Shown here: piece by piece, positions 6,134 through 53,130 of the stretch
Layout: the number at the start of each line of letters is the position of its first letter
Numbering within the stretch: the first letter of the stretch is position 1
DNA from: Escherichia coli
GTDB lineage: Bacteria > Pseudomonadota > Gammaproteobacteria > Enterobacterales > Enterobacteriaceae
Direction: 5' to 3' (one strand)
Length of the DNA stretch: 64,000 bases
NCBI RefSeq assembly: GCF_045037415.1
Contig: NZ_CP173438.1
The notes under the pieces: generated by a model
Told to the model about the DNA's origin: nothing
Seen by the model: the letters and a program-made list of their open reading frames with translations, nothing else
Database searches by the model: none
Translations under genes and position numbers: made by a program

Positions 6134-7156
6134 TTAAACCTCTGTAGAGCGGTTTCCGCTGGGTGAGTTATGCCTGTTGAAAAAATCAACGATAGCGTGG
6201 AGCGCGACTGAGCGCATTGCGTCCTTTTCAAAAAGGATCTCATGGTACGCACCTTTAATTACCAACGGCCGTCCTCCTTCGACAGGATGGCCCGCAGCGG
6301 TGCGTAGTTCACAAAAACGGTCGTGCATGCGGTTATCCACCACGCGTTCCTCTTCAGCTTGTAAGAGAAGCGTTGGCGTGGCGTCATCACCCGCACCGGC
6401 TAACACCTGTTCGCCAGCCAGAATACTTTCGCGTACCCAATGGTAGGTCGGCCCACCGACGCGAATCGTTGGGTCATCAGCATAGAAACGTAAGTTACGT
6501 CGATATCGCTGTCTGCTGTGGGTCAGTACGTTGATAGCAAACGGCAACGCGCGCCAGCGCCCGGTGCCTATTGCATAGCCATCACGGAAACGTGGATGCG
6601 CTTCGGCCCAATTGAGGATCTGCCGTGCCATAAATGACGGCATACGAATCACGATCCCAAACATTGGCGCAGTTAGCGCAATGGCGTCACATACACCTGG
6701 ATGGCGTTGCAGAAATAATGTGGAGATCGCACCGCCCATCGAATGTGCCAGTATATAGCGTTTACGCCACGGACCGGGCTGAACCTCCTGTTGCCAGAAT
6801 GCCGCCAGATCATCAACATAATCATTAAAGCGATTAACATGCCCGAGATGTGGATCGGCTAACAGGCGACCGGAACGTCCCTGCCCGCGATGGTCGATGA
6901 TTAAAACATCAAACCCCGAATGGAACAGGTCGTAGGCCAGTTCCGCATATTTTACGTAGCTCTCAATACGCCCCGGGCAGATAACTACCACCCGGTCATG
7001 GTGCTGTGCGCGAAAACGGACAAAGCGAACCGGAATGTCATCCACACCAGTAAACTCTGCTTCATCACGCTGACGCCAGAAATCAGTCAGCGGTCCCATG
7101 GTAAAAGCAGCAAACGCGTTTTCTCTTGTTTCCCAGTCTTTTTGCTGCTGAAACAT
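6134..7156 (-). CDS. pldB: Lysophospholipase L2
   Basis: 340-aa ORF with alpha/beta-hydrolase GHSMGG motif; immediately upstream of yigL. Confidence 0.9.
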   Translation of the reverse strand: MFQQQKDWETRENAFAAFTMGPLTDFWRQRDEAEFTGVDDIPVRFVRFRAQHHDRVVVICPGRIESYVKYAELAYDLFHSGFDVLIIDHRGQGRSGRLLADPHLGHVNRFNDYVDDLAAFWQQEVQPGPWRKRYILAHSMGGAISTLFLQRHPGVCDAIALTAPMFGIVIRMPSFMARQILNWAEAHPRFRDGYAIGTGRWRALPFAINVLTHSRQRYRRNLRFYADDPTIRVGGPTYHWVRESILAGEQVLAGAGDDATPTLLLQAEEERVVDNRMHDRFCELRTAAGHPVEGGRPLVIKGAYHEILFEKDAMRSVALHAIVDFFNRHNSPSGNRSTEV

Positions 7157-7266: not shown

Positions 7267-7887
7267 ATGACCTTAGAATGGTGGTTTGCCTACCTGCTGA
7301 CATCGATCATTTTAAGCCTGTCGCCAGGCTCTGGCGCAATCAACACCATGACCACCTCGCTCAACCACGGTTATCGCGGCGCGGTGGCGTCTATTGCTGG
7401 GCTTCAGACCGGACTGGCGATTCATATTGTGCTGGTTGGCGTGGGGTTGGGGACGCTATTTTCCCGCTCAGTGATTGCGTTTGAAGTGTTGAAGTGGGCA
7501 GGCGCAGCTTACTTGATTTGGCTTGGGATCCAGCAGTGGCGCGCCGCTGGCGCAATTGATCTTAAATCGCTGGCCTCTACTCAATCGCGTCGACATTTGT
7601 TCCAGCGCGCAGTTTTTGTCAATCTCACCAATCCCAAAAGTATTGTGTTTCTGGCGGCGCTATTTCCGCAATTCATCATGCCGCAACAGCCGCAGCTGAT
7701 GCAGTATATCGTGCTCGGCGTCACCACTATTGTGGTCGATATTATTGTGATGATCGGTTACGCCACCCTTGCTCAACGGATTGCTCTATGGATTAAAGGA
7801 CCAAAGCAGATGAAGGCGCTGAATAAGATTTTCGGCTCGTTATTTATGCTGGTGGGAGCGCTGTTAGCATCGGCGAGGCATGCTTAA
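7267..7887 (+). CDS. rhtB: LysE/RhtB-family homoserine/homoserine-lactone exporter
   Basis: 206-aa membrane ORF; N-terminus [27 protein letters not shown] typical of the RhtB family; next to pldB. Confidence 0.9.
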
Positions 7888-7917
7888 AACTGGAATAAAG
7901 CTCACGTAAATTAATGT

Positions 7918-7950
7918 GCCTCGAGAGATTGTTACATCCGCGCTCGAGGC
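7918..7950. other. Stem-loop (8-bp stem GCCTCGAG/CTCGAGGC, 17-nt loop) between rhtB and the Rpn-like gene
   Basis: Inverted repeat read directly from the sequence; function unknown. Confidence 0.35.
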
Positions 7951-8045
7951 ATCTCGTAATAAGCGTAATCTGTTAATTTATTTACTATTTACTTCTCTTT
8001 GTTAGTGCCAGAATGCCGCCATATTTCACCCACGGATGATGAAAA

Positions 8046-8906
8046 ATGACGGAAGCAACGACACCACATGACGCAATCTTTAAGGCTTTTTTATCCCGAC
8101 CAGAAACGGCCCGTGACTTTATTGAAATTCATCTGCCGCCTTCTTTAGTTAAACTCTGCAATCTTGATACGCTCCATCTCGAGTCCAGCAGTTTTGTAGA
8201 GGAAAACCTACGCCAGTATTACAACGACGTACTTTATTCAGTAGAGACGACGAAAGGGTGCGGATATATCTATGTGTTGATTGAGCATCAAAGTTCACCT
8301 GATGAAAATATGGCGTTCCGTATGCTTCGCTATGCTATTGCCACCATGCAGCGGCATCTTGAAGCGGGACATGATTATCTGCCTCTGGTGATCCCCATTC
8401 TTTTTTACCAGGGAAAGCGTAGCCCATATCCATGGTCAACAAACTGGCTCGATGGTTTTCCGGATCCGGACATTGCACGCGATCTCTATTTTCATGCTTT
8501 TCCGCTGGTTGATATTACGCTAATTCCTGATGACGAAATCATGCAACACCGCAGCATGGCCGCCTTTACGCTGGTACAGAAGCATATCCGTCAACGGGAT
8601 ATGACAACGCTGTTAGATAAGTTATCCCGCTTAATGATTCTGGGGCAGATGAGCGGACAGCAAATACGCATGTTGATAAACTACATGGCGCTGGTAGGTG
8701 AAGCACAGGATGTACGAACATTAGTACATGGTCTGGCACAACGAGTGCCTCAACAAGGAGAGGAACTGATGACTTTAGCGGAAGAACTTCGGCGCGATGC
8801 CCTTCTCAATGTCGCAAAAGCCATGCTACAGCGTGGCTTTGATTTGCAGTTGATTATGGAAATGACCGGGCTTTCTCAGGAAGACCTTTATCAATTGCAA
8901 TCCTGA
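8046..8906 (+). CDS. Rpn/YhgA-like PD-(D/E)XK recombination-promoting nuclease family protein
   Basis: 286-aa ORF; N-terminal pattern TPHDAIFKAFL..ETARDFIEIHLP...LHLESSSFVEE...YNDVLYSV...YVLIEHQSS is what I recognise from E. coli RpnA-E (Transposase_31 family). Recalled, not searched. Confidence 0.75.
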   Translation: MTEATTPHDAIFKAFLSRPETARDFIEIHLPPSLVKLCNLDTLHLESSSFVEENLRQYYNDVLYSVETTKGCGYIYVLIEHQSSPDENMAFRMLRYAIATMQRHLEAGHDYLPLVIPILFYQGKRSPYPWSTNWLDGFPDPDIARDLYFHAFPLVDITLIPDDEIMQHRSMAAFTLVQKHIRQRDMTTLLDKLSRLMILGQMSGQQIRMLINYMALVGEAQDVRTLVHGLAQRVPQQGEELMTLAEELRRDALLNVAKAMLQRGFDLQLIMEMTGLSQEDLYQLQS

Positions 8907-8913
8907 TGTTATT

Positions 8914-8936
8914 CCCCCTGATAGCGTATCAGGGGG
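8914..8936. other. G/C-rich stem-loop (CCCCCTGATA-GCG-TATCAGGGGG) at the convergent junction of the Rpn-like gene and rhtC
   Basis: Perfect 10-bp inverted repeat; no flanking T-run on either strand, so terminator function is uncertain. Confidence 0.4.
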
Positions 8937-8943
8937 GAAGCGC

Positions 8944-9564
8944 TTAACGCGAAATAATCAAATGAATGCCAAATCCGGCAAATAACGCCCCGGCAAAACC
9001 ATCAATCCACTTCGCCAGACGTTGATAACCACAGCGCATTTGCGGCAGAGCAAACAGGCTGGCAACGACGGTAAACCACGCCAGTGTTTCGACAATAATC
9101 AACGCGAAAATGCCCCAGCGTTCGGTGGTGCCGACATTATCACCGACAAACAGCGAGAACACCGAACCAAAGTAGATAATCGCTTTAGGATTCGCGAGAT
9201 TGGTCAGTAAGCCCTTAAGAAAACTGCGCCCGCTTTTCGCCAGTTCGACTTGTGGCGCAGGGGCAGAAACAACCTCTTTTTTCAGTGCACCACGTAGCAT
9301 CTGGTAACCCATCCAGCAGAGATACAGGCCACCGCCCACCATAATCAGCGTATGCAGCCAGGCCATTTTTTCGATAATCAAATGTAGGCCAAGCAACGCA
9401 ATCCCAGCCCAAACCATTACGCCGCAGGTAATGCCCAGCACGCCCATCATCGCTTCTTTACGGGAACGACTAACAGCGGTCTGAGATACAAAAAAGAAAT
9501 CGGGACCGGGGCTCATAAGCGCCACAATGTGCACCATGGCGACGGTGAGGAATAACATCAACAT
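8944..9564 (-). CDS. rhtC: LysE/RhtB-family threonine exporter
   Basis: 206-aa membrane ORF, paralogous to rhtB; adjacent to recQ as in E. coli. Confidence 0.9.
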   Translation of the reverse strand: MLMLFLTVAMVHIVALMSPGPDFFFVSQTAVSRSRKEAMMGVLGITCGVMVWAGIALLGLHLIIEKMAWLHTLIMVGGGLYLCWMGYQMLRGALKKEVVSAPAPQVELAKSGRSFLKGLLTNLANPKAIIYFGSVFSLFVGDNVGTTERWGIFALIIVETLAWFTVVASLFALPQMRCGYQRLAKWIDGFAGALFAGFGIHLIISR

Positions 9565-9628: not shown

Positions 9629-11458
9629 CTACTCTTCGTCGTCACCATCGACATGCGCACGAATCAGCGCCATAAACGGTTTGCCAAAGCGTTCCAGCTT
9701 GCGCATACCAACGCCGTTAACGCTGAGCATTTCGCTGGCGGTGATCGGCATCTGTTCAGCCATCTCAATCAAGGTAGCGTCGTTAAACACCACGTACGGC
9801 GGGACATTGCTTTCATCGGCAATCGATTTACGCAGTTTGCGTAATTTGGCGAACAGTTTGCGATCATAGTTGCCGCCGAACGATTTCTGCATCGCTTTCG
9901 GTTTGAGCGCCACGATACGCGGCACGGCAAGTTGCAAAGAGGATTCGCCGCGCAGCACCGGACGCGCAGCCTCTGTCAGTTGTAGGGCAGAATGCTGGGC
10001 AATATTTTGCGTCACCAGGCCGAGGTGAATCAGCTGGCGGATCACGCTCACCCAATGTTCATGGCTTTTATCACGGCCCATGCCATAGACTTTCAGTTTG
10101 TCATGACCATAGTCGCGGATACGCTGATTATTAGCACCGCGAATCACTTCCACCACATAACCCATCCCAAACCGCTGATTCACACGACCAATGGTGGAAA
10201 GGGCAATCTGCGCATCGGTTGAACCATCGTACTGTTTTGGCGGATCGAGGCAGATATCGCAGTTCCCGCACGGCTCCTGACGCCCTTCGCCAAAATAGTT
10301 CAGCAATACCAAACGACGGCAAGTTTGCGCTTCAGCAAACGCGCCCATCGCATTGAGTTTATGACGTTCGATATCCTGCAACTGCCCCTGCGGCTTCTCT
10401 TCCAGACAACGGCGCAGCCACGCCATATCAGCCGGATCGTAAAACAGCATCGCTTCCGCGGGCAGGCCATCACGCCCGGCGCGTCCAGTTTCCTGATAAT
10501 AGGATTCGATATTGCGCGGAATATCAAAATGCACCACGAAGCGAACGTTAGGCTTGTTGATGCCCATGCCGAACGCCACCGTCGCCACCACAATTTGCAG
10601 GTCATCGCGCTGGAATTTTTCCTGCACATCAGCGCGAACATTATTTTCCAGCCCGGCATGATAGGCCGCCGCGCTAATTCCCTTGCTTTGCAGGCGCGCA
10701 GCGGTGTCTTCTACTTTCGCACGACTATTACAGTAAATAATCCCCGACTTACCGCGTTGTTCCTGTACATAACGCATCAACTGATCGAGCGGTTTGAATT
10801 TCTCCATCAGCATGTAGCGAATATTCGGACGGTCAAAACTGCTGATTTGAATCAGCGGATCGTTCAGCCCCAGCAGGCGCACGATATCCTGGCGCGTGGT
10901 GTCATCGGCTGTGGCAGTCAGCGCCATAAACGGCAGCGTCGGAAAACGCTGACGCAGCTGACCGAGGGCAGCGTATTCCGGGCGGAAATCGTGACCCCAT
11001 TGGGAGATACAGTGCGCCTCATCAACGGCTAATAACACCGGATTCCAGTGCGCCAGATGCTCAAGAAAGTTATCCAGCATCAGGCGTTCCGGCGCGATAT
11101 AAAGCAGGCTGATTTGCCCGGTGCGACAGCCTGTCATCACTTCAAGTTGCTGCTCGCGGGTTTGCGTCGAGTTAAGGCACGCCGCCGCCACGCCGTTGGC
11201 TTGCAGTTGATCTACCTGATCTTTCATCAACGAAATCAGCGGTGAGACAACCACGGTAAGGCCGTTTAGCAATAAGGCAGGGATTTGATAGCAAAGGGAT
11301 TTTCCGCCACCAGTGGGCATGACGACCAGGCAATCGCGACCGGAAAGTACGGTGTCGATAATCTCTTCCTGGCCGGGGCGAAACTGTTGGTAGCCAAAGG
11401 TTTCTTGTAAAACCTGTTTAGCTCCGGACTCCAGATTCAACACTTCCGCCTGCGCCAC
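9629..11458 (-). CDS. recQ: ATP-dependent DNA helicase RecQ
   Basis: ORF 9629..11464; conserved start is the GTG two codons in ([17 protein letters not shown]), giving 609 aa. DEAH box (LLAVDEAH), RQC and HRDC regions present. Confidence 0.95.
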
Positions 11459-11476
11459 ATTCACCCCGATTGCCTG

Positions 11477-31593: not shown

Positions 31594-32193
31594 ATGTCAA
31601 ACATGCGCACACCGTCCCGCTATATTTTCCGCTTACCATCACATGAAATTAATCCTTTTCGGGCAACGCTCTTGCTGATTTTGTTGATATGTGCCGTTCT
31701 GGCTGGCGTAAGTTGGCTGATTCTGTCCTTCGTACGTACAGGCAATACATTCATCTTCTGGTTAACACTTTTTATTGGGTATCTGATAGCCATTGCGAAG
31801 CAGGAAAAAATCAAGCTCATCGAGAAGCGCCAGATTATGGCTGATAAACGTCAGGGACTTTCCATTTGTCAGTTCGCACGCCAATTTTCCCCCCACACCG
31901 TAGATACATGGGTGATTCGGGCTGTGTGGAATACCTTACAAGGAAACGGCTATATCGATTATCCATTACCACTGAAAGCCAGTGATAAACTGGACGATGA
32001 TCTGGATTTAGTAAACGATGCAGACGAGTTAGAAGAGCTGGTCGAAGATATTGCCGCTCGTTGTGGGCGCGATCTACGCGGAATAGAAGATAATCCGTTT
32101 CTTCCCATCACCACGGTAGGTTCTCTTGTAAGTGTATTAAACGCACAACCGATGACCCAAGAGCGACGTAGCCTGTTGTTTACTCGGTCATAA
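31594..32193 (+). CDS. Hypothetical two-TM membrane protein with acidic C-terminal domain
   Basis: 199-aa ORF in a 640-bp region between hemY and the GlmZ 3' end; AAGGA 9 nt upstream of the second ATG (31603); two hydrophobic helices then DDDLDLVNDADELEELVED. No family recognised. Confidence 0.45.
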   Translation: MSNMRTPSRYIFRLPSHEINPFRATLLLILLICAVLAGVSWLILSFVRTGNTFIFWLTLFIGYLIAIAKQEKIKLIEKRQIMADKRQGLSICQFARQFSPHTVDTWVIRAVWNTLQGNGYIDYPLPLKASDKLDDDLDLVNDADELEELVEDIAARCGRDLRGIEDNPFLPITTVGSLVSVLNAQPMTQERRSLLFTRS

Positions 32194-32398
32194 AAAAACG
32201 CCTGCTCTTATTACGGAGCAGGCGTTAAAACAGGTCTGTATGACAACAAGTGGGTGCTTCACTCAACGTTGTGTCCATGGTGTCTGATGAGGCAGAAGCG
32301 ACATCTGTCAGTGGACGATAAGCACCGTAAACGGCTCTGCGTCATTCCGGAGTTTATGAGGCACTAAGGCGAACATAAGAGATGGAATGAGCATCTAC
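32193..32398 (-). ncRNA. glmZ: GlmZ small regulatory RNA (activator of glmS translation)
   Basis: Minus-strand sequence from 32398 reads GTAGATGCTCATTCCATCTCTTATGTTCGCCTTAGTGCCTCATAAACTCCGGAATGAC and ends with hairpin AACGCCTGCTC-CGTAATAAGA-GCAGGCGTT plus TTTTTTT; matches my memory of E. coli GlmZ, located between hemY and aslA. Confidence 0.85.
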
Positions 32399-35950: not shown

Positions 35951-36027
35951 TGGTCGGCGAGAGAGGATTCGAACCTCCGACCCACTGGTCCCAAACCAGT
36001 TGCGCTACCAAGCTGCGCTACTCGCCG
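35951..36027 (-). tRNA. proM: tRNA-Pro (CGG)
   Basis: Reverse complement reads CGGCGAGTAGCGCAGCTTGGTAGCGCAACTGGTTTGGGACCAGTGGGTCGGAGGTTCGAATCCTCTCTCGCCGACCA. Confidence 0.95.
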
Positions 36028-36069
36028 AAATACTGCTTTTTGAATTTTTAGTTCAATTCTTTAAAGTCG

Positions 36070-36155
36070 TGGTGCGAGGGGGGGACTTGAACCCCCACGT
36101 CCGTAAGGACACTAACACCTGAAGCTAGCGCGTCTACCAATTCCGCCACCTTCGC
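36070..36155 (-). tRNA. leuT: tRNA-Leu (CAG)
   Basis: Reverse complement reads GCGAAGGTGGCGGAATTGGTAGACGCGCTAGCTTCAGGTGTTAGTGTCCTTACGGACGTGGGGGTTCAAGTCCCCCCCTCGCACCA (long variable arm). Confidence 0.93.
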
Positions 36156-36175
36156 ATTGTCACAACTTCTAATAA

Positions 36176-36252
36176 TGGGGTGGCTAATGGGATTCGAACC
36201 CACGACAACTGGAATCACAATCCAGGGCTCTACCAACTGAGCTATAGCCACC
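36176..36252 (-). tRNA. hisR: tRNA-His (GUG)
   Basis: Reverse complement reads GGTGGCTATAGCTCAGTTGGTAGAGCCCTGGATTGTGATTCCAGTTGTCGTGGGTTCGAATCCCATTAGCCACCCCA, including the extra 5' G. Confidence 0.95.
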
Positions 36253-36309
36253 ACTACAAATCTTGTTACGCGGTATTACTACCACCGCAGCTCAAGCGCC
36301 GGGACTAAA

Positions 36310-36386
<77 letters not shown>

Positions 36387-52670: not shown

Positions 52671-53000
52671 TTACGCCAGGTTAGCGTCGAGGAACTCTTT
52701 CAACTGACCTTTAGACAGTGCGCCCACTTTGGTTGCCGCCACTTCACCGTTTTTGAACAGCAGCAGAGTCGGGATACCACGGATGCCATATTTCGGCGCA
52801 GTGCCAGGGTTTTGATCGATGTTCAGTTTTGCAACGGTCAGTTTGCCCTGATATTCGTCAGCGATTTCATCCAGAATCGGGGCGATCATTTTGCACGGAC
52901 CGCACCACTCTGCCCAGAAATCGACGAGGATCGCCCCGTCCGCTTTGAGTACATCCGTGTCAAAACTGTCGTCAGTCAGGTGAATAATTTTATCGCTCAT
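52671..53000 (-). CDS. trxA: Thioredoxin 1
   Basis: ORF 52671..53105; conserved start [18 protein letters not shown] gives 109 aa; WCGPC active site. Confidence 0.97.
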
Positions 53001-53130
53001 ATATAACTCCACAGGAATAAGCCTGGCGTGTTGGTTTCGTTGTTGGTGTAACATTAACCAACTAAAGGTTGACTTTATTTCACCGGATACGCTTTCGTAA
53101 AGCAATAGTAAGCTGATATTCTACCACACT

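Follow-up and report, generated by a model that had tools for sequence, protein, structure and literature searches.

The gene at positions 8046-8906 of the Escherichia coli DNA considered here (contig NZ_CP173438.1 of assembly GCF_045037415.1; the whole stretch of 64,000 nucleotides (nt) is called the window) is likely to be a two-in-one RpnL/RpnS toxin-antitoxin module of the kind that Zhong et al. (2023) described. The full-length open reading frame (ORF) would encode the toxin RpnL, and the candidate antitoxin gene rpnS is nested in its 3' end in the same frame, starting from ATG 8769. This reading is based on sequence comparison, a structural model and analogy with characterized Rpn proteins. 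The annotation examined lists only the product of 286 amino acids (aa), named 'Rpn family nuclease/putative transposase', and thus that record does not include the nested 45-aa gene. The segment 8769-8906 is very probably an unannotated, predicted addition to a known type of toxin-antitoxin systems. The principle is already known from Zhong et al. 2023, and none new is added here.

Judging by its sequence, the full-length ORF is an intact gene of an Rpn-family PD-(D/E)XK nuclease. Its product, represented in RefSeq by the Rpn family entry WP_000133649.1, matches the Pfam domain PF04754 (Transposase_31) at residues 6-206 with E 4.3e-82, and its score against the Rpn family model TIGR01784 (180.5 bits) is well above the cutoff of 52.1. 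The activity of RpnA needs residues D11, D63, E82, Q84 and R94 (Kingston et al., PMC5350276), which align with D9, D61, E80, Q82 and R92 of the window protein. In the alignment with the Rpn proteins of strain K-12, the PDDE motif is P161-D-D-E. The residues D9, D61, E80, Q82, R92, P161 and D162 are unchanged across 28 homologs. With each of RpnA, RpnB, RpnC, RpnD and RpnE of K-12, the protein shares 51-55% identity, and it does not reach the cutoff of the RpnA equivalog model NF007361 of NCBIfam (345.8 bits, cutoff 583). Thus, by sequence comparison, this gene is a sixth, separate chromosomal paralog and not RpnA itself. The Protein Data Bank (PDB) fold search with the full-length protein produced no significant match, as no full-length Rpn structure is available.

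An earlier note on this DNA had suggested that an RpnS-like antitoxin is independently translated from the 3' third of the gene. This part of the suggestion is supported by homology: by the domains, the catalytic set, the internal methionine with its Shine-Dalgarno box, the three-helix unit and the repeats found in homologs. The note also listed in-frame ATG codons at 8601-8603 (M186), 8634-8636 (M197) and 8649-8651 (M202) and favored the last of them, with a product of 85 aa. All three are present and are in frame with 8046-8906; ATG 8649 is indeed preceded by GGGGCAG, and translation from it would produce 85 aa. The list is, however, incomplete. Further in-frame ATG codons in the same interval 8601-8906 are found at 8670, 8685, 8769, 8823, 8856 and 8862, so that the interval does include the better-supported start of the 45-aa product, ATG 8769, which had been left out.

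The energy of the duplex with the anti-Shine-Dalgarno sequence was computed upstream of every in-frame start codon of the ORF. The value at 8769 (M242), -8.5 kcal/mol, is the minimum of the ORF, and this is the sole in-frame ATG with a strong and well-spaced Shine-Dalgarno box. Only 1.4% of positions are at or below -8 kcal/mol, and the 12 strongest are all due to the AAGGAGAGG site. The duplex energy at 8649 (M202), preceded by ctGGGGCAG, is -4.7 kcal/mol, and the GGGG run is 3 nt from the ATG. For the annotated start 8046 (M1) the energy is -3.3 kcal/mol.

Comparison with experimentally studied genes leads to the same codon. In all five rpn genes of K-12 and in a homolog from Clostridioides difficile, translation from an internal start yields a small protein corresponding to the C-terminus (Zhong et al. 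2023, PMC10400941). RpnA-S starts at M244, its ribosome-binding site is at K240/E241, and mutating these positions abolishes RpnA-S (PMC10400941). When the whole window protein was compared with PDB sequences, residue 1 of 7TH0_A, the crystal chain of RpnA-S, aligned with M242 (E 0.003). In the alignment with RpnA-E of K-12, M242, and with it RpnA M244, falls in the invariant (L/M/I)MT(I/L)A column. The columns of M186, M197 and M202 contain no methionine in any of these five proteins; in the M202 column all five have alanine or threonine. At the DNA level, the window gene and rpnA-E, six genes together, share the arrangement (A/G)GGAG, then 6-7 nt, then ATGAC. The sequence evidence places the start of rpnS at ATG 8769 (45 aa) and not at ATG 8649 (85 aa), and the preference for M202, a variable residue with a weak and too close G-run, is not upheld. 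Thus the correct codon can be overlooked when an internal ATG is chosen by eye; here homology to a validated start and synonymous conservation point elsewhere.

Conservation was considered in a set of 119 protein homologs with at least 57% identity. The M242 column contains methionine in all 119 homologs, compared with 99 at M202 (isoleucine or leucine in the other 20), 97 at M186 and 18 at M197. However, M89 and M166 are likewise unchanged in all 119 homologs, and thus the invariance of a methionine is not diagnostic by itself.

Conservation at the nucleotide level is stronger evidence. It was analyzed in ten orthologs, the window gene and nine retrieved DNA sequences. Seven of these nine occupy the slot between rhtB and rhtC, and two (L001 and L017), also counted among the ten, are from short contigs where the flanks could not be identified. 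GGAG precedes the equivalent of M242 in 10/10 orthologs, and is always formed via the GGA codon of glycine G238, although GGA constitutes only 29% (44/153) of glycine codons in these ten genes. GGAG is also present at this position in rpnA-E of K-12 and in the one paralog examined from the mog-talB locus (see below). The residues encoded at this site differ among paralogs (G-E, K-E, G-G, R-E), whereas GGAG is constant. Among columns with an invariant amino acid, the codons are identical in 5/13 cases within codons 201-241, as compared with 3/104 elsewhere (Fisher p 3.6e-4). The M202 codon, on the other hand, is CTG in an ortholog from the same locus (L006).

The C-terminal unit is predicted to fold as the three-helix bundle of RpnA-S. 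In the AlphaFold2 model of the 45-aa segment alone (mean predicted local distance difference test score 89), residues 3-21, 26-33 and 37-44 form helices. Among 350,542 PDB chains, the best match of this model is 7TH0 (probability 1.00, TM-score 0.69, 47% identity). The Pfam family PF27070 (HTH_Rpn_C) matches the 45-aa sequence by itself, whereas the Pfam-A search of the window protein gave no match to DUF4351.

RpnS proteins are known to contain four-residue repeats in variable number, 8-20 residues after the RpnS methionine (Zhong et al. 2023, PMC10400941). Homologs of the window protein have units (E/Q/K)G(I/M/L/R)(Q/K) inserted 8-9 residues after M242; they are 286-350 aa long, and most differ in length from the window protein by multiples of 4 aa. 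By alignment, the position and the kind of these inserts match the variation described for RpnS. The other aligned RpnS segments (n=23) all have at least 49 aa and a G(K/R) unit, and in orthologs from the same slot the RpnS tail varies from 45 to 109 aa. The E. coli allele is the shortest in the set and contains neither a four-residue unit nor G(K/R). No 12-nt tandem repeat was found in the window.

RpnA (YhgA) of K-12 is the best-studied relative. It shares with the window protein the N-terminal nuclease domain PF04754 with the same catalytic residues, and the in-frame internal methionine (M244 in RpnA, M242 here) located at equal distance after AAGGAG. The RpnS part, 48% identical to RpnA-S (7TH0), has the same MT(I/L)AE opening of a three-helix unit of about 45-50 aa, but is four residues shorter, the difference being in helix 1. 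The overall identity to RpnA is 53%, below the equivalog cutoff, and the loci differ: rpnA is located between feoC and bioH, the window gene between rhtB and rhtC. The closest paralog in K-12 is RpnB (YfcI), with 55% identity. RpnB, RpnC (YadD), RpnD (YjiP) and RpnE (YfaD) have the same architecture with an aligned internal methionine and GGAG; RpnB, RpnC and RpnE contain extra four-residue units, which the window allele lacks. By its description, the plasmid-borne RpnP2 of ECOR13 belongs to the same family and presumably follows the same logic of a toxin with a nested antitoxin. However, RpnP2 is encoded by a plasmid and protects against T-even phages (PMC10400941), whereas the window gene is chromosomal and is surrounded by housekeeping genes. 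Free-standing RpnS genes (DUF4351, PF14261), such as ypaA downstream of rpnE, also have a small helical product that corresponds to the C-terminus of Rpn. In contrast to them, the small ORF of the window is nested in frame, and it is in natural variants with truncated rpnL that the 45-aa ORF is called as a gene of its own.

The nested gene may have its own promoter. Differential RNA sequencing detected an internal transcription start site in every rpn gene of K-12 (Zhong et al., PMC10400941). Among these genes, Cappable-seq data were looked up for rpnC only: the internal start site on the plus strand, 147583, has a score of 60, compared with 1.8 upstream of the gene (Ettwiller et al., PMC4782308). 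It lies 108 nt before the internal start codon of rpnC, and the candidate promoter of the window is situated about 80 nt upstream of rpnS. The latter is a sigma-70-like pair of boxes separated by 17 bp, which has a score of 8-9/12 at the same position in 10/10 orthologs. All ten orthologs have TAAA(C/A/G)T at the -10 position, where codon 211, GTA or ATA, supplies the T and A. The codons AGC of S203 and CAA of Q206 are identical in all ten orthologs; these are two of the five codon-identical columns mentioned above, and they flank the -35 box. The same simple score recovers the promoter of rpnC (TGGTCA, 17 bp, TACACT), and it also finds a candidate in K-12 rpnD at the same relative position as in the window. 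The -10 box of rpnC has no counterpart at the aligned position of the window, which reads CAGATG. Thus we consider an internal sigma-70 promoter at 8654-8682, producing a short rpnS mRNA, as a hypothesis suggested by the sequence. A transcript starting near 8687-8690 would not contain ATG 8649.

Another conserved element, CTGGCACaacgaGTGCC at 8733-8749, precedes the start of rpnS by about 20 nt. It has the form CTGGCAC-N5-GTGCC and includes a 5-bp palindrome and a sigma-54-like pattern TGGCAC-N6-TGC. The codons CTG of L230 and GTG of V234 are identical in 10/10 orthologs, and the motif was not found in the K-12 paralogs. There is a small chance that this element regulates the synthesis of RpnS. 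The interpretation of TGGCACaacgaGTGC (8734-8748) as a sigma-54 promoter was rejected: the window contains two such sites where chance predicts about one, and shuffled sequences do equally well in 28 of 100 cases. A role in leader RNA structure is also unsupported, as the z-score for the fold of 8689-8810 is -0.07, and the minimum-free-energy structure does not include the GGCAC/GTGCC hairpin.

We infer the production of RpnS, the neutralization of RpnL, the toxicity or defense role of RpnL and the position of the promoter. Translation of the full ORF would yield RpnL, a 286-aa PD-(D/E)XK DNA endonuclease that is presumably toxic when unopposed. In-frame initiation at ATG 8769 via AAGGAGAGG would yield RpnS, 45 aa long and with the same sequence as the C-terminal end of RpnL. 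If the analogy with RpnA holds, RpnS may bind the identical helix-1 surface of RpnL, resulting in an L2S2 complex in which DNA cleavage is blocked. The nuclease would then be freed by some trigger, perhaps phage infection or alkaline conditions. RpnS probably exceeds RpnL in amount, as its ribosome-binding site is much stronger (-8.5 versus -3.3 kcal/mol), and an internal promoter of its own may add to this difference.

Several observations weigh against the toxin-antitoxin module, in addition to the equal invariance of M89 and M166. Strain K-12, in which start sites were mapped by ribosome profiling, does not have this gene. The matches to RpnA-S are modest (Foldseek E 0.059, PDB sequence match E 0.003), as expected for a protein of 45 residues. 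The 645 copies found in complete E. coli genomes are monomorphic in repeat number, and since even the G(K/R) unit is missing, helix 1 is shorter than in any characterized RpnS. A stricter standard scan of 7850-9000 detected no sigma-70 promoter; the candidate promoter of the window matches at only 8/12 positions and overlaps conserved residues. Finally, the neighbors pldB, rhtB, rhtC and recQ are housekeeping genes and do not form a defense island, and a search against PADLOC-DB 2.0 (2023), which predates or omits Rpn, yielded no relevant defense model and one weak unrelated CARF match.

Part of these observations would be explained if there were no internal initiation at all, and the three-helix unit served only for dimerization or regulation within the full-length nuclease. 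The methionine and GGAG would then be retained for reasons acting at the protein level or for other reasons; M242 is no more invariant than M89 and M166, and the repeats and strain-to-strain variation, which were regarded as signs of selection on RpnS, are absent from the E. coli allele. However, constraint on the protein does not account for GGAG being constant across paralogs despite the changed residues, nor for its formation in 10/10 orthologs via a codon used for less than a third of glycines. Moreover, five K-12 paralogs and the C. difficile homolog, all of the same architecture, do make the small protein (PMC10400941). Mainly because of the synonymous conservation of the Shine-Dalgarno box and the experimental precedent in six homologs, we consider this explanation unlikely.

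Less likely still is initiation at ATG 8649, which would yield an 85-aa product with two extra upstream helices, serving as the antitoxin or as an additional form of it. Such a fragment is structurally not absurd, as in the AlphaFold2 model M202 is in a loop between the helices 186-198 and 204-216. The codon is in frame after a G-run, methionine is frequent in this column, and the codons ATG AGC GGA CAA CAA around M202 are unusually conserved at synonymous sites. However, the latter is equally explained by the candidate -35 box, and the transcript from that promoter would lack ATG 8649. The G-run is weak and close to the codon as compared with the site of 8769, and methionine is replaced by leucine or isoleucine in 20/119 homologs, including the CTG codon of L006. 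None of the five K-12 paralogs with detected RpnS has methionine here, and M202 is still within the Transposase_31 domain envelope. The validated and crystallized RpnA-S begins at the residue equivalent to M242. Thus the 85-aa protein might be a minor species, while every comparative test favors M242 as the start of RpnS.

The gene is carried by 645/5426 complete E. coli genomes, always as one copy per genome. In 644 cases the copy is chromosomal, and the remaining one is on a record classed as a plasmid. All 645 copies were recorded as full-length and at least 99% identical; one chromosomal copy (strain CUVET21-1780) consists of 859 nt and not of 861, which implies a frameshifted allele. In the RefSeq annotation, the gene adjoins rhtC in every one of the matches listed. 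In K-12 and in about 88% of E. coli genomes, the slot between rhtB and rhtC contains only a 61-bp spacer similar to repetitive extragenic palindromes. The homology between the window and K-12 ends exactly at the stop codons of rhtB and rhtC, and no duplication is seen.

The same slot is filled by an rpn gene in Pseudescherichia (P. vulneris), Klebsiella (K. pneumoniae), Citrobacter and Enterobacter. Between genera, identity is 80-93% for the flanking proteins, 66-70% for Rpn and 51-60% for its RpnS part. The faster divergence of the latter agrees with the rapid evolution reported for the C-terminus. By these comparisons, the locus 7888-8943 looks like an old resident that has been lost by most E. 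coli, or has been repeatedly replaced there, rather than a recent insertion.

It is hardly credible that the gene is a transposase of an insertion sequence (the ISNCY label) whose C-terminal part is a DNA-binding helix-turn-helix domain: although it scores 343 bits against the NCBIfam model NF007418 'ISNCY family transposase', a name used in some database entries, this is below the cutoff of 583, and although the C-terminal domain resembles a helix-turn-helix (Pfam HTH_Rpn_C; TrpR and resolvase domains among the weaker fold matches), no terminal inverted repeats or target-site duplication were found around the gene, it is present in single copy in 645 genomes and on the chromosome in 644, it occupies the same slot in four other genera, and Zhong et al. 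saw no evidence that rpn genes transpose autonomously (PMC10400941). Thus the transposase label is not supported.

There is a small chance that the functional interpretation should be different. The Rpn of the rhtB-rhtC slot may be an old resident locus across Enterobacteriaceae and not a roving defense gene, lost from about 88% of E. coli, and the E. coli allele may be a fixed, repeat-free minimal RpnS. The tract with zero repeats would then perhaps represent a distinct functional state, for instance with changed affinity between RpnL and RpnS, or with a housekeeping role.

If the toxin-antitoxin module is confirmed, some 12% of the complete genomes of E. coli, O25:H4 isolates among them, would carry an uncharacterized sixth chromosomal Rpn toxin-antitoxin module. 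The locus would also be a convenient natural test of the model in which specificity depends on repeat length, since the repeat-free allele of E. coli can be compared with repeat-bearing orthologs from the same slot.

Several sequenced variants lack an intact rpnL. In three assemblies (L020, L021 and L022) rpnL is independently truncated a short distance upstream of M242, by a nonsense mutation at codon 226, by a deletion of 1 nt in codon 233 and by a change of G238 to TGA. The 45-aa ORF is intact in all three, and the gene caller then selects the ATG of M242 alone. Longer C-terminal fragments of 78-135 aa are also on record, including one of 121 aa on 139 contigs. These variants may be genuine alleles with an inactivated toxin, or may result from errors of assembly, and the sample is biased by the mode of its discovery. 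In an exact look-up, both the 45-aa and the 85-aa sequences were found as automatic gene calls, the 45-aa calls being on contigs with truncated rpnL; such calls say nothing about which start is used. The rpnS start is embedded in cTGATGa (8766-8772), whose TGA is a stop codon in the +1 frame and overlaps the ATG. In L021, the frameshift makes the shortened upstream ORF terminate exactly on this TGA, creating a stop-start overlap as in translational coupling. The overlap is probably incidental.

Kluyvera-like contigs (L007 and L008) contain an Rpn paralog with 60-61% identity at another conserved location, between mog and talB. The copy in L007 has the same internal start with GGAG and ATG. K-12 has no rpn gene at the mog-talB locus.

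The features of the locus are listed in Table 1. The inverted repeat between the convergent genes rpn and rhtC may be a site where transcripts end. No T-run follows it on either strand, and therefore it was not flagged by the standard terminator scan of 7850-9000, which found only two weak terminator-like sites, one of them within the ORF. A second hairpin is located at 7920-7950, between rhtB and rpn.

Table 1. Coordinates of known and candidate features at the rhtB-rhtC locus of the window
Feature	Positions	Strand	Remarks
pldB	6134-7156	-	neighbor gene
rhtB	7267-7887	+	neighbor gene
rpnL, putative toxin, Rpn-family PD-(D/E)XK nuclease, 286 aa and stop	8046-8906	+	ORF call
Region encoding the Transposase_31 domain, residues 6-206; holds M186, M197, M202	8061-8663	+	Pfam envelope
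ATG of M202, product of 85 aa (MSGQQIRML...)	8649-8651	+	judged unlikely as the main internal start
Candidate -35 box CGGACA, sigma-70, of a putative short rpnS transcript	8654-8659	+	same position in ten orthologs
Candidate -10 box TAAACT	8677-8682	+	17 bp from the -35 box; predicted transcription start near 8687-8690
Candidate Shine-Dalgarno box AAGGAGAGG of rpnS	8755-8763	+	-8.5 kcal/mol, 5-8 nt from ATG 8769
rpnS, nested in frame, putative 45-aa antitoxin MTLAEELRRDALLNVAKAMLQRGFDLQLIMEMTGLSQEDLYQLQS and stop	8769-8906	+	ATG is M242
Codons R249/R250 in helix 1, site of repeat insertion in homologs; none in this allele	8790-8795	+	alignments
GC-rich inverted repeat, perfect over 10 bp: CCCCCTGATA gcg TATCAGGGGG, 3-nt loop	8914-8936	.	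between convergent rpn and rhtC
rhtC	8944-9564	-	neighbor gene, convergent with rpn
recQ	9629-11464	-	neighbor gene

Elsewhere in the window, Rfam matches correspond to the GlmZ small RNA (32192-32398), a cluster of four tRNAs (35954-36386) and the thermometer in the 5' untranslated region of trxA (52971-53070). They are ordinary for a chromosomal region and are unrelated to the rpn gene.

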